From assembly GCA_947254205.1 (NCBI GenBank), contig CAMYCE010000001.1, forward strand, positions 35,274 to 99,273: a DNA stretch of 64,000 nt, read 5' to 3'. The notes beneath the pieces were generated by a model. The model did not search any database, was not told the DNA's origin, and was given only the letters and a program-made list of their open reading frames with translations. Each line of letters opens with the position of its first letter. Within the stretch, counting starts at the first letter, position 1. Both the position numbers and the translations under genes were made by a program. The stretch comes from an uncultured Prevotellaceae bacterium. Its GTDB lineage: Bacteria; Bacteroidota; Bacteroidia; Bacteroidales; Muribaculaceae. Positions 8,514 through 62,028 of this stretch are shown here, in pieces.

Positions 8514-9088
8514 TGGAGGACAAAGCAATGAAAGAAGAATTGATTATAGCCGGATTTGGCGGACAAGGAGTGCTCTCGATGGGCAAAATTCTTGCCTATT
8601 CGGGACTCATGGAAGACAAAGAGGTGACTTGGATGCCATCTTATGGACCAGAACAGCGTGGTGGCACAGCCAACGTGACGGTGATATTGAGCGATGAGCG
8701 CATCAGCTCGCCCGTGCTCAATGCTTTTGACACCGTGATTGTGCTCAATCAACAAAGCCTCGACCGCTTTGAAAGCAAGGTTAAACCCGGAGGCATTCTC
8801 ATCTACGACAGCTATGGCATTCACACTCCACCCAAGCGCACCGACATCAAAATCTACAAGATTGATGCCACCGAGGCATCAATCGAGATGCAAAATGCCA
8901 AGTCGTTTAACATGATTGTGCTGGGTGCCTATCTCAAGGTGAAACCCACTGTGAGCATGGAAAGTGTGATTAAAGGCTTGAAGAAAAGCCTGCCCGAACG
9001 CCACTGGAATCTCATTCCCATGAATGAAGAAGCGCTCAAAAAAGGAGCAAGCCTCGTTGCCCCCCAATCGGTCATTAGGTCGCAATAA
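8510..9088 (+). CDS. 2-oxoacid:ferredoxin oxidoreductase gamma subunit
   Basis: 192 aa. IIAGFGGQGVLSMGKILA... is the gamma-subunit signature. The last ~8 codons and the stop codon lie inside MITE copy 1. Confidence 0.85.
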   Translation: MMEDKAMKEELIIAGFGGQGVLSMGKILAYSGLMEDKEVTWMPSYGPEQRGGTANVTVILSDERISSPVLNAFDTVIVLNQQSLDRFESKVKPGGILIYDSYGIHTPPKRTDIKIYKIDATEASIEMQNAKSFNMIVLGAYLKVKPTVSMESVIKGLKKSLPERHWNLIPMNEEALKKGASLVAPQSVIRSQ

Positions 9089-9152
9089 GAAAATATCTTA
9101 GGCTTTTCCTTGCCTTTGTCAAAAACAAAGAAACCTAATGACCGATTTGGGT
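9063..9152. repeat. MITE-like element, copy 1 (short, internally deleted, inverted relative to copies 2 and 3)
   Basis: The ends CCCAATCGGTCATTAGGT...ACCTAATGACCGATTTGGGTT match the terminal inverted repeats of the 185-bp element at 45763, 60283 and 61914. The interior (cgcaataagaaaatatcttaggcttttccttgcctttgtca) equals the reverse complement of the right end of copy 3. Confidence 0.75.
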
Positions 9153-9192
9153 TGAAGAGTAGCATGGTGCACAACCATTATTGCAAAACAAG

Positions 9193-9232
9193 GGCACAAC
9201 TCGCTGTGGTTGCAGGGTTGTGCCTTTACTGT
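9193..9232 (+). terminator. Hairpin (GGCACAAC-N16-GTTGTGCC) followed by a T-rich tract; candidate terminator of the kor operon
   Basis: Seen in the sequence, downstream of the kor stop and of the inserted repeat. Confidence 0.4.
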
Positions 9233-9313
9233 ACCGGTCACCCACGAGTGCCTTTAATTGAGAAAATTGACCAACATGCCAAATTGCCTGAATGGCTTTT
9301 TGAATTGTGAGGC

Positions 9314-11008
9314 CTATAGGTGTTGGCTTGCAGGTGCATAAAGCACAAAATGACTATCGCAATACACAACATGATAGCCCCATTTCAATTTGTAGCTGTT
9401 GAGCACTTTCAATTTCTCATTTTTTTGAAAGTCGGTTTCTTGCTCATATTGATGTAGATGCTCAGGAGCGGCTGTACCCCAAAACTCTCCTATCGTGCTG
9501 AATTTTTGTTGCAACAATAATGGGTGAACCTTGCTGTGCGACAATTTATAATTCAACGCCTCGGCACTCAACAACTCGGGCCACGAGCAACCCACGTGAG
9601 GACGAGTGTGAGTGAGATAGTTAATCATGCTTCCGCTTCCATACACCATGAGCGTGTCGCCACTTTTTATCCATGGCGATATTCCTTTCAAAAGATTATT
9701 GATAACATGGGCACGATAAGGGGTTGTCATCACGCCACGAGCCCTATCGGCATGAATGGTTGCATGATGCACAGCATAGTTGCCTCCATCAAAATAAGGT
9801 CCATCAATCAACACATGCCCCACACATGCGAGCAAGAAAATGGCAAAATAAACCACAAAACGTCGCTTGAGCCAAAGCAATGATGCAACAGGTGCTGCAA
9901 CAAAGGCAATGATGCTTCCATTGTTGAATGCTCCATCACTACCCAAAGGAAAAACCAAGAGCATGAACAAGCCTAACCAAGCCCATATTTTCAATTCATA
10001 GGGTTGGGTAATAATGACAACAATACCGGAAAACAACACCCACACCCACACCACAGTGAAAGAGTGTGCACGCCACAAAAACCAAGCCATGGCAAGAAAA
10101 CTTGCCCCCCAAGACAAGGCGATAATCAATTTATTCTTGCTCAACCCATGAGCTATTGCCGGCAAAACAAGGCAACCTCCCAACTTCACAGCAGTCCACA
10201 ATGCCATTGCATAAAAAGAGAGCTGCACCATGATGAGATGAGACAATGAATGGGTTTGTTCACCAGTGGCATCTTGTGCAATGCTGCGCAATTCCTCTAT
10301 ATTAGCAAGAAAAATGTTGAAGTGCCCTGCTACAAGCATCAATGCAATCACACTTGCCCATGCCATTATCAAACCGGCAAAATACCACGTCACACACCAA
10401 GCAACACGTCGCCATGGCACAAAAATGTAATGGCGAGAAATCAAGACTATAAAAATAATGAAGACCGACAACACATTGGGAACGCGAGTAAAACAGTTGA
10501 GCCCTATGGCCAAACCTGCCAGCATAAAATAATAAAACTTTCTAAGAGTCAACCCTCTATAAAGCCAAACAATGGCAAGAATATAGAACAAAAGCGTGAA
10601 TAAATCGTGATTGATTGCATAAACCGGCTTGGCATAACCCACCACTACAAGGACAAAGCCAAGCATGATAGCCGAGGTGGGCACAATCTCTTTCAAATTG
10701 CTATAAAGAATCTTCATCACCGCCAAGCACAACGCAACACCCGCCAATCTCATTCCCACAAGGCCCATAGTGGGAAATAGCCACTGCAATGCCCCTCCCA
10801 ACACGCCACTCAAATAATACATGAAATTGTAGCTCACCGACTCAGGATTTGTGAAGATATTGTCGTAGAACGTGAGATAAAAACCACTATCGCAAGTTTC
10901 AAATCCCCAAAACACTCCAAGCAGCATGTAGCAACCCAGCAACATTAAAACCACAGCCATGCTGCGTGTGCCATGCGACTCAATGCTATGATGTAGCTGG
11001 GAAAGCAT
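9314..11008 (-). CDS. Polytopic integral membrane protein (12+ predicted TM segments), possibly a GT-C/ArnT-PMT_2-like glycosyltransferase
   Basis: 564 aa, very hydrophobic, with a long periplasmic-type C-terminal domain. An acidic motif (ETCDSG) follows the first TM segment, as in GT-C enzymes. The family assignment is tentative. Confidence 0.55.
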   Translation of the reverse strand: MLSQLHHSIESHGTRSMAVVLMLLGCYMLLGVFWGFETCDSGFYLTFYDNIFTNPESVSYNFMYYLSGVLGGALQWLFPTMGLVGMRLAGVALCLAVMKILYSNLKEIVPTSAIMLGFVLVVVGYAKPVYAINHDLFTLLFYILAIVWLYRGLTLRKFYYFMLAGLAIGLNCFTRVPNVLSVFIIFIVLISRHYIFVPWRRVAWCVTWYFAGLIMAWASVIALMLVAGHFNIFLANIEELRSIAQDATGEQTHSLSHLIMVQLSFYAMALWTAVKLGGCLVLPAIAHGLSKNKLIIALSWGASFLAMAWFLWRAHSFTVVWVWVLFSGIVVIITQPYELKIWAWLGLFMLLVFPLGSDGAFNNGSIIAFVAAPVASLLWLKRRFVVYFAIFLLACVGHVLIDGPYFDGGNYAVHHATIHADRARGVMTTPYRAHVINNLLKGISPWIKSGDTLMVYGSGSMINYLTHTRPHVGCSWPELLSAEALNYKLSHSKVHPLLLQQKFSTIGEFWGTAAPEHLHQYEQETDFQKNEKLKVLNSYKLKWGYHVVYCDSHFVLYAPASQHL

Positions 11009-11023
11009 TTTCAGGAAAAATTT

Positions 11024-60467: not shown

Positions 60468-60654
60468 AAAATAGCAGGAGCATATTTCAAACACAACCAC
60501 GACAACAAAAAAATGAGTACTATCATTTTTTAAACAGTTTTTATGTTTATATTTGCACTTAACTTTAAAAATAATTAAATATTATACTTTAAAGAACCTT
60601 TCTTTTCCCCAAACTAAAAGAAAACAACATTTTAATTTTCCAAAATACAACAAC

Positions 60655-61413
60655 ATGAAAAAGTTTTTACTTTCAATTTTCATGATGCTCTTGAGCATCA
60701 ACACTATTGTTTTGGCAAGTGTGCCACAAAAAATCGCCTACCAAATCATGGTGCTTGATCCCGCCAATGGTCGCATCATGGCCAATGCCAATGTGGCACT
60801 GCGCATCGAGATTCGCCAAGGTAGCGAAAACGGTACTGCTGTGTTTGGTCAAGATTTCAACACCACTACCGACAAGAATGGCACCTGCGCCATCATGCTC
60901 GACATTCCTGCCGGCACCAACTGGTCGCAAGGCAACTACTACTTTGCAACCCTCATCAATGGCAAACTCACCGGAGCTTCACACATTGCCAGCGTGCCCT
61001 ATGCCCTTGTATCTGGCCAACTCGATGGTGTGATCACTCGTCAAGAACTGATTGGAACATGGGAACTCGTGCCCGGCACTCCCGGCAACACCGACCAATT
61101 TGATGACGGCATTTATCAGAAATACAATAAACTCACCTATGTCTTCAATGCCGATGGCACTGCAAGCATATCGGCCGAAAGGGAAGATAACAGACGTGGT
61201 AATATCGACTTAAGCAACTATGAGATAACTTTTAACTGGACACTCACTCCAACAGGAACACTGGTTGTGACCAATAGGAAGGACACGAAACATCCCAACG
61301 ACACCGAATTTCTCGAGTATTTTCCTGTGATTAAAATGGGAGAAGGCAAGTGCGTGTTTCCAATCTGTGACAGCGACTGTAATTATAGTTATATCTTGAC
61401 CAAGAAGCAATAA
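60655..61413 (+). CDS. Hypothetical secreted protein
   Basis: Internal ATG at 60655 gives the signal peptide MKKFLLSIFMMLLSINTIVLA. The ORF-track frame starts upstream at 60553. No recognisable domain. Confidence 0.5.
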   Translation: MKKFLLSIFMMLLSINTIVLASVPQKIAYQIMVLDPANGRIMANANVALRIEIRQGSENGTAVFGQDFNTTTDKNGTCAIMLDIPAGTNWSQGNYYFATLINGKLTGASHIASVPYALVSGQLDGVITRQELIGTWELVPGTPGNTDQFDDGIYQKYNKLTYVFNADGTASISAEREDNRRGNIDLSNYEITFNWTLTPTGTLVVTNRKDTKHPNDTEFLEYFPVIKMGEGKCVFPICDSDCNYSYILTKKQ

Positions 61414-61418
61414 AAAAG

Positions 61419-61877
61419 ATGGCACACACAATGAAAACAGGATTAACACTGCTCACAGCCATCATCGCTGCAAGTGCCGGCGCAACCGACTATGCCACTA
61501 TAGCGCAACCAGTTGTGGCCTATGCCACCAATGGCAACACATCGACCACACTGCTTGCCCTGCCTGCCATGATTGCCAACACCAACGAGGCAACCTATGT
61601 GATGGGCAATGTGGTGCCTGGCGAAATCATCAACAGTGCCGATGTTGCAATGGTGCACAGCCAAGCAACCCCAATTCTCACCATCACGGGCAATGTAGTT
61701 GAGGTGAAAGCAAGCGAAAAATCAGGGTCATCGACTCTTGCGATTTTTGATGCAACAGGGCGCAAACTAGGCGTGTGGACTTTGCAAAATGGCAGGGCAA
61801 GCATCATGCTGCCCGGTGCTGGCGTGTATCTCGTGAAGATGGAAGGCTATAGCCAAAAGATCGTGATTCACTCCTAA
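61419..61877 (+). CDS. Small secreted protein with a T9SS type-A C-terminal sorting domain
   Basis: 152 aa. Signal peptide plus C-terminus ...SGSSTLAIFDATGRKLGVWTLQNGRASIMLPGAGVYLVKMEGYSQKIVIHS (T9SS CTD pattern). Confidence 0.6.
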   Translation: MAHTMKTGLTLLTAIIAASAGATDYATIAQPVVAYATNGNTSTTLLALPAMIANTNEATYVMGNVVPGEIINSADVAMVHSQATPILTITGNVVEVKASEKSGSSTLAIFDATGRKLGVWTLQNGRASIMLPGAGVYLVKMEGYSQKIVIHS

Positions 61878-61913
61878 GAAAAGGGAAGCTTATCAGCGTA
61901 ATTGCACGTAATT

Positions 61914-62028
61914 AAACCCAAATCGGTCATTAGGTCGCAATAAGAAAATATCTTAGGCTTTTCCTTGCCTTTGTCAAATTATTTTGAATAATTTGACAAA
62001 AACAAAGAAACCTAATGACCGATGGGGG
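61914..62028. repeat. MITE-like element, copy 4 (short, 115 bp, internally deleted, inverted relative to copies 2 and 3)
   Basis: AACCCAAATCGGTCATTAGGTCGCAATAAG...ACCTAATGACCGATGGGGGTT. The centre is a perfect inverted repeat TTTGTCAAATTATT/AATAATTTGACAAA. Confidence 0.75.

Follow-up and report, generated by a model that had tools for sequence, protein, structure and literature searches.

The window analyzed here, a stretch of 64,000 nucleotides from an uncultured Prevotellaceae bacterium of the GTDB family Muribaculaceae (contig CAMYCE010000001.1, positions 35,274 to 99,273), contains four copies of a short repeat, which is a genuine, recently mobile transposable element of the miniature inverted-repeat type (MITE; Table 1). 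The element ends are CCCAAATCGGTCATTAGG and its reverse complement CCTAATGACCGATTTGGG, with no open reading frame (ORF) between them, and the ORFs predicted inside the individual copies are spurious only. As judged from a search with the 18-mer CCAAATCGGTCATTAGGT, the window harbors eight matches at up to three mismatches, which form four inward-facing inverted pairs, compared to a chance expectation of 0.03 matches and to none of 100 dinucleotide-preserving shuffles reaching eight. All four loci with common termini proposed in a first-pass annotation of the same sequence were recovered by this search, and their terminal repeats, which had been aligned by eye, can indeed be aligned between the copies. 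The inverted repeat itself, given there as 20 bp, is real but only 18 bp long, as the leading AA and the trailing TT belong to the flanking duplication. The description of all four loci as intergenic does not fully apply to copy 1, which overlaps the last 27 nt of the ORF at 8510-9088.

Two of the copies are full-length (181-182 bp); the other two, of 90 and 112 bp, lack the center. Copies 2 and 3 had been described as full-length, approximately 90% identical and equally oriented, and copies 1 and 4 as oppositely oriented and internally deleted, which agrees with an identity of 89.0% between the plus-strand copies 2 and 3 and with the absence of the central part from the minus-strand copies 1 and 4 (alignment A1; a repeat finder was also run). 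The perfect palindrome TTTGTCAAATTATT / AATAATTTGACAAA reported for the center of copy 4 is directly readable in the sequence. Since copies 1, 3, and 4 share 96-98% identity across their common parts, they represent a young lineage, and copy 2, with its 89% identity to copy 3, belongs to an older one. Several short-read contigs terminate within copies of the element, including three Logan contigs that break inside copy 1, as is expected for a multicopy repeat.

Table 1. Positions of the four element copies, their flanking pentamers and internal parts, and of the gene affected by copy 1.
Feature	Position	Strand	Description
POR gamma-subunit gene (PF01558)	8510-9088	+	3' end remodelled by copy 1
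Copy 1	9062-9151	-	90 bp, center deleted, both terminal inverted repeats intact
Flanks of copy 1	9057-9061, 9152-9156		TTGCC and TTGAA, degenerate duplication
Copy 2	45764-45945	+	182 bp, full-length
Apex of copy 2	45838-45847		TAGCGGGCTA
Flanks of copy 2	45759-45763, 45946-45950		TTTAA, target-site duplication
Copy 3	60285-60465	+	181 bp, full-length
Terminal repeats of copy 3	60285-60302, 60448-60465		left and right repeat
Apex of copy 3	60359-60368		TAGCGGGCTA
Side branch of copy 3	~60414-60445		hairpin
Flanks of copy 3	60280-60284, 60466-60470		TTAAA, target-site duplication
Copy 4	61917-62028	-	112 bp, center deleted and palindromised
Flanks of copy 4	61912-61916, 62029-62033		TTAAA, target-site duplication

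Target duplications, empty sites, and decay

Once the element is delimited as CCC...GGG, an AT-rich target duplication of 5 bp becomes visible. Among 39 paired-end copies from the window and from Bacteroidales genomes, the flanking pentamers are identical at all five positions in 19 cases and at four positions in 10, compared to 0-1 perfect cases in shifted controls. The corresponding values for a non-redundant set of 110 copies, to which metagenome loci were added, are 40 and 30, with one perfect case and two cases of four identical positions in the control. The duplicated pentamers consist of TTAAA/TTTAA (21), ATAAA/TTTAT (9), ATAAT, TTCAA, and ATTAA (3 each), and ATAAG (1), and because they differ from copy to copy, they must be regarded as duplicated target rather than as element sequence. 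The TTAA/TAA flanks noticed in the first-pass annotation therefore reflect an existing AT-rich flanking repeat, but its length is 5 bp, as seen for copies 2-4 in Table 1, and not the 2-4 bp (TTAA/TA) that had been expected; its consensus is approximately TTWAA / WTWAW.

Precise empty sites are present in conspecific metagenome strains, whose contigs (L070-L088) show flanks almost identical to those of the window. At the site of copy 3, L070-L073 read ...CCACATTT-TTAAA-ATAGCAGG..., with a single TTAAA and nothing inserted, and the site is filled by 181 bp between TTAAA or near-TTAAA pentamers in the window, L074, L075, L077, and L078; in L079, copy 3 is present but truncated by the contig end. 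The site of copy 2 is likewise empty in L088, which reads ...TTTTGAGGG-TTAAA-CCTTTTGAAGC... with a single TTAAA, and filled in L081-L087. Unoccupied sites are thus available for two of the four window copies, and their variable presence among conspecific strains indicates that the element has moved recently, as had been supposed from its density in the window. The empty sites also contradict the notion of fixed, syntenic copies in which the 5-bp repeats would be part of the element. Together with the 5-bp duplication and the spurious nature of the internal ORFs, they bear out the view of a non-autonomous MITE-like transposon without coding capacity; the observation made in the first-pass annotation is confirmed, and its core interpretation as a MITE is supported.

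Two further features were noted in the intergenic region of copy 2. A different sequence of about 110 bp lies immediately upstream of the start of the DUF3108 gene in L088 (positions 2850-3000) and represents a second, unrelated polymorphism. Directly adjoining copy 2, a near-perfect 27-nt inverted repeat (TCAAAACACAGAATCACACTCCACTGC / GCCGTGGAGTGTGATTCTCTATTTTGA, 45954-46009) is located just downstream of a minus-strand peptidase C69 gene and is kept in strains with and without the element; it is probably the terminator of that gene.

Copy 4 is occupied in all ten strains compared, and its center varies between forms of 87, 101, 102, 111, and 112 bp. In the copy 4 of L075, the side branch specific to the right arm has given way to the very sequence of the opposite arm, which is a templated arm-to-arm conversion. 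Central deletion and arm-to-arm conversion explain the series of ever-shorter derivatives, and mini-elements of 34-72 bp were indeed found at other loci. Such conversion could also produce compensatory changes in the absence of selection, so that any inference of selection on the fold described below has to be tempered.

Fold and distribution of the family

Copy 3 is predicted to fold from end to end into one rod-like hairpin, from whose 3' arm a single side branch emerges. The calculated energy of the RNA fold is -81.5 kcal/mol, compared to -34 kcal/mol for shuffled sequences (z = -11), and the DNA fold is similar. The internal hairpins previously pointed out in copies 2 and 3 are present, although they are better described as parts of this whole-element fold; the side-branch hairpins of the two copies, as read from their sequences, are the same helix differing at several paired positions. 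When searched for with a profile, the ~181-bp window family proved to have 26 full-length relatives, plus many truncated or centrally deleted copies. In an alignment of 26 elements (A2), the 18-bp terminal repeat is conserved throughout and the interiors are only about 50-60% alike across subfamilies; the right end ACGACCTAATGACCGATTTGGG is nearly invariant, the left end varies more, and the apex TAGCnnGCTA is conserved. Of the 31 consensus pairs assigned by RNAalifold, 18 show compensatory changes. Paired cells on this structure amount to 92.8%, compared to 79% in column shuffles and 20-48% in slid-partner controls, and double-change cells number 114 versus 41, with none of 500 shuffles reaching the observed 114.

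The plus strand, as assigned by homology, is more stable than its complement in all 26 elements, with mean values of -75.3 and -61.3 kcal/mol, respectively. When each element is aligned to its own reverse complement, a procedure favoring neither type of mismatch, G.T mismatches (110) outnumber A.C mismatches (65). The orientation relative to neighboring genes is unbiased (convergent in 11 cases, divergent in 5, same in 4, and opposite in 3), and its bias relative to the local GC skew (8 versus 18) is not significant, so that host transcription or replication is an unlikely mutational source of the asymmetry. A search against Rfam 15 returned only a tRNA in the window, and the element itself gave sub-threshold matches to plant microRNA-precursor hairpins. 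The suggestion that the copies could double as small-RNA or terminator modules finds no support, as the element belongs to no Rfam family, a terminator-like T tract was not found, and its orientation with respect to genes is unbiased.

The dozens of further copies that had been predicted are present in other Bacteroidales genomes and in metagenomes. The end sequence was found at more than 65 loci at the least in a scan of one genome per species, nearly all of them in Bacteroidales. Among the matches listed, the carriers are Prevotellaceae, Muribaculaceae, Bacteroidaceae, and Porphyromonadaceae-labelled metagenome-assembled genomes (MAGs) from rumen and gut as well as Prevotella micans, the Prevotellaceae MAG UMGS2057 alone accounts for about 20 loci, and the three matches outside the Bacteroidales are about as many as chance would produce. 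In metagenomes, the end is present at more than 120 loci, and the repeat loci overall exceed 185.

When metagenomes were scanned with a pattern that avoids the known interiors, no insertion sequence came to light, but many unrelated interiors were seen to lie between copies of one and the same 18-bp end in Prevotellaceae, Muribaculaceae, and Bacteroidaceae, with element lengths from 34 to about 700 bp. The shortest forms are minimal end-to-end fusions of 34 bp and hairpin minis of 53-72 bp, and the longer families with this end measure about 227, 247, and 279 bp, in addition to mosaics of 326-600 bp. The elements are at times nested in one another at TTTAA. The window element is one family of a large Bacteroidales set with a common 18-bp end, which is seemingly undescribed. 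Viral contigs contain five true matches in a 16-mer scan. A 66-bp mini-element consisting of two ends and a short hairpin, flanked by a TTTAT duplication, is located on the IMG/VR contigs L220 (12320-12385) and L227 (1991-2056), the former of which also encodes a large terminase, indicating that the elements reach phage genomes. No relevant match came up when collections of plasmids and phages were searched with the element by BLAST.

Some additional repeats were observed at the fetched loci. A sibling end, CCCAAGTCGGGCAATAGG, which is identical to the MITE end at 15 of 18 positions, abuts MITE copies at L169:1426-1443 and L190:8374-8391 and may mark a related element family recognized by a related enzyme. 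On the reverse strand of L190 (906 inward), an element of the TAGCGGGCTA type is nested at TTTAA within another family with the same ends. Elements of 330-420 bp with the same ends on L115, L133, L169, and L044 share a further repeated module that combines GTTCAATCC / GGATTGAAC motifs in inverted arrangement with short tandem units resembling ATAGTATCGTTAT, and which looks like a separate nested repeat.

Mobilization and relation to known elements

The explanation that we consider very probable overall is that of a MITE mobilized in trans by a DDE-type transposase, with the fold aiding propagation and the copies decaying after insertion. The transposase would bind the 18-bp terminal repeats, cut at the CCC/GGG boundaries, and join the element ends to target cuts staggered by 5 bp. 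The targets are AT-rich pentanucleotides (TTAAA/TTTAA most, then ATAAA, ATAAT, TTCAA, and others), which are duplicated upon insertion. The plus strand may help propagation as a folded single strand of either DNA or RNA, e.g., by bringing both ends together, and compensatory substitutions preserve the ~181-bp fold across at least six diverged subfamilies. Resident copies then shrink by hairpin-mediated central deletion from 181 bp to 112, 90, about 60, and 34 bp, with templated arm-to-arm conversion as a second route of decay.

With regard to the cognate enzyme, CC(C)...(G)GG termini combined with AT-rich duplications of 4-5 bp (5 bp in ISEcp1) characterize the IS1380 family (ISfinder summary), and the element follows the same pattern with its CCC...GGG termini and 5-bp duplication. 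Elements of the eukaryotic piggyBac superfamily, to which the IS1380 family is related and for which it was used as prokaryotic outgroup, similarly show CCC ends and TTAA targets (PMC10813416). Because of this combination of termini and duplications, our best guess is an IS1380/piggyBac-like enzyme. Unlike for IS1380 elements, whose transposases belong to PF13701/PF01609, no IS1380-type transposase was found near the copies in the fetched loci, and membership in that family is to be taken as a working hypothesis only. Using the transposase of ISEcp1 from plasmid pC15-1a as query, tblastn searches yielded nothing in any of the fetched loci and no Bacteroidales relatives among plasmids, and a protein homologue search returned only near-identical relatives of more than 83% identity.

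Several points weigh against this explanation or parts of it. Examination of about 1.6 Mb surrounding more than 185 repeat matches revealed neither a transposase nor an autonomous element with these ends. The ORFs located inward of solo or paired ends are host genes, coding for a TPR protein, glucose-6-phosphate isomerase, fucosidase, SusC, LRR, and T9SS proteins; clustering of the ORFs of at least 180 aa from the fetched loci gave only recurrent families of host genes and no recurrent small ORF beside the copies; and repeat pairs spaced 0.8-4 kb apart with matching flanks proved to be only pairs of independent elements that enclose no candidate. The ends of ISEcp1, CCTAGATTCTACGTCAGT and CCTAAATTCCACGTGTGT, each match the element repeat at 9 of 18 positions, and the positions shared by its terminal stretches CCTAGATTCTACGT and CCTAAATTCCACGT include CCnA.AT; this similarity is suggestive of an IS1380-like enzyme, but it is weak and could be due to chance. 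The strand asymmetry of the fold is based on only about six independent lineages, as copies of a subfamily share their ancestry, and the compensatory changes could stem from arm-to-arm conversion, as seen in L075, instead of selection on the fold. Finally, a rod-like fold is not needed for mobility in general, because the interiors of the further families bounded by this end are unrelated.

Three candidate partners were rejected. The interior of L026, where the two ends of one element lie 2 kb apart, consists of DUF4143 pseudogene fragments and a hypothetical gene, and a large serine recombinase (Resolvase and Recombinase domains) about 360 bp inward on L190 is separated from the end by nested elements, shows no recurrence, and is probably coincidental. 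The third, an IS30-family element on L076, has ends unrelated to the MITE. Its transposase gene (HTH_38 and rve domains, 1920-2867) occupies the place where efflux genes normally lie, in one conspecific strain, and the insertion truncates the 5' end of a gene for a 252-aa secreted protein.

A different proposal is that of an order-wide Bacteroidales superfamily defined by the 18-bp end and served by a transposase encoded elsewhere than between such ends, e.g., by a conserved single-copy or domesticated gene as in the case of RAYTs serving REPs, combined with strand-specific selection on the ~181-bp rod fold with its fixed apex, such that the folded RNA or single-stranded DNA would be functional in transposition or in regulation at the host level. 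We regard this composite proposal as rather improbable. Still less probable is a dispersed family of structured non-coding RNAs, i.e., small RNAs or cis-regulatory hairpins whose conserved ends would be part of the RNA. The strong covariation, the conserved apex, the better folding of one strand in 26 of 26 copies, and the excess of G.U over A.C pairs are all in line with an RNA. Yet the only Rfam matches are weak and of the generic plant microRNA-precursor type, a promoter- or terminator-like signal was not found in the scanned interval containing copies 3 and 4, the orientation is random relative to neighboring genes, and the center is freely lost from copies; moreover, precise 5-bp duplications and empty sites are hallmarks of transposons, and unrelated interiors are bounded by the same ends.

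Long hairpins with strand asymmetry, together with the failure to find a DDE transposase in the fetched loci, may also recall REP- or REPIN-like palindromes, which are moved as single-stranded DNA by an HUH enzyme (RAYT or IS200/IS605-type). HUH elements make no such target duplications, and the exact 5-bp duplications observed here, which vary among copies but are the same on the left and right of each copy, make this origin very unlikely. In addition, the ends start with CCCA and do not carry the GTAG or CGTC tags known from REPs, the 18-bp repeats occupy a terminal position instead of forming subterminal hairpins, and a Y1 transposase was not seen beside any copy examined. The inverted arrangement of copies 3 and 4 could moreover be read as a composite transposon of 1.74 kb carrying the two secreted-protein genes in between (60655-61877), as the inverted repeats that form its outer ends (60285 and 62028) are both flanked by TTAAA. 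We give this reading hardly any credence, since each of the two copies has its own complete TTAAA duplication, and it is rejected by strains L070-L073, which keep copy 4 and both genes but show a clean empty site in place of copy 3. Copies 3 and 4 are therefore two independent insertions into a preferred target.

Returning to the favored MITE mobilized in trans, its nearest functional counterparts are ERIC and Correia, orphan MITEs of proteobacteria that form hairpins. ERIC/IRU elements of enterobacteria (MITEEc1) and Correia/NEMIS elements of Neisseria measure about 100-190 bp, and ERIC is an imperfect palindrome conserved across genera. Like the window family, they are short, non-coding, and mostly intergenic, possess terminal inverted repeats and AT-rich duplications, form size variants through internal deletion, and have no identified cognate transposase. 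They differ from it by their unrelated ends, a TA instead of a 5-bp duplication, and their hosts, and by lacking the use of one common end for many interiors. Tn3-derived TIMEs are non-autonomous elements with a 5-bp AT-rich duplication and repeats of about 38 bp starting with GGGG; the duplication length fits, but the 18-bp repeat starting with CCC separates the family from them. The MITEs of Porphyromonas gingivalis (BrickBuilt, MITEPgRS/464, MITE239, and MITE700) resemble it in residing in Bacteroidales hosts and in being intergenic, nested, and polymorphic between strains. They contain IS5-type repeats (GAGACC..., ACGTCAG...), are linked to ISPg1, ISPg3, ISPg4, and ISPg9, and carry minisatellites (PMC4596501), and their ends share no sequence relation with CCCAAATCGGTCATTAGG. 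A catalogue published in Nucleic Acids Research in 2024 lists tens of thousands of computed MITEs in Bacteroidota, some of them in phages (PMC11602168). The window family may well be among them, although the catalogue is only a list that does not describe this family, and no description of its end, 5-bp duplication, fold, or distribution was found. Literature searches for the end sequence retrieved no description.

The family stands out by its 18-bp end shared across Bacteroidales families and cargoes, the covarying, strand-asymmetric rod fold with a conserved apex in the ~181-bp family, and the missing transposase. The small non-coding mobile elements of Muribaculaceae, Prevotellaceae, and Bacteroidaceae, the dominant families in communities of gut and rumen, are barely characterized. 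The family breaks short-read assemblies, creates strain-level insertion polymorphisms beside promoters and gene ends, and is able to remodel protein C-termini. The occurrence of one 18-bp end on many unrelated cargoes across families implies a widespread transposase, and finding it would be of value for understanding the genome plasticity of the microbiota and possibly provide a genetic tool for Bacteroidales. The variably occupied sites and the fast-changing hairpin centers offer themselves as ready-made strain markers.

Copy 1 and the genomic context

The final 27 nt of the POR gamma-subunit gene are identical with the first 27 nt of copy 1, including the stop codon TAA (9086-9088), which is newly supplied by the element. 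The encoded C-terminus reads ...GASLVAPQSVIRSQ before the stop codon, compared to ...GASIVK in the related species represented by L211, and the last codons were thus replaced by the element. Copy 1 is occupied in all four conspecific contigs examined and is missing at the orthologous site of L211, whose DnaJ is 87% identical; the neighboring gene content differs there as well. A 564-aa ORF without Pfam domain (9314-11008, minus strand), with the Porin_10 gene on one side and the POR operon on the other, is likewise missing from the orthologous position in L211.

The nearby genes carry domains typical of Bacteroidales, such as Porin_10, OEP/RND efflux, an M6 peptidase with dockerin, and those of PFOR subunits. 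The DnaJ encoded in the window shows 82% identity to a Muribaculaceae MAG protein and 78% to that of Sodaliphilus, which identifies the host as an uncultured Muribaculaceae species. Proteins of the window recur exactly on numerous contigs from metagenomes, one of the samples being labelled HMPC12-1 (SAMN00044822). Among the other repeats of the window, a 29-nt direct repeat (GTGGAAAAACGCAGTAAATTACACCCACA) is present twice in tandem among short ORFs at 54832-54893 (93% identity, spacing 33). A 142-nt direct repeat with 75% identity is present at 19016-19157 and 21623-21764, i.e., 2.6 kb apart, at the ends of two adjacent long minus-strand ORFs, the first of which codes for the M6 peptidase with the dockerin domain; these two ORFs are probably tandem paralogues.

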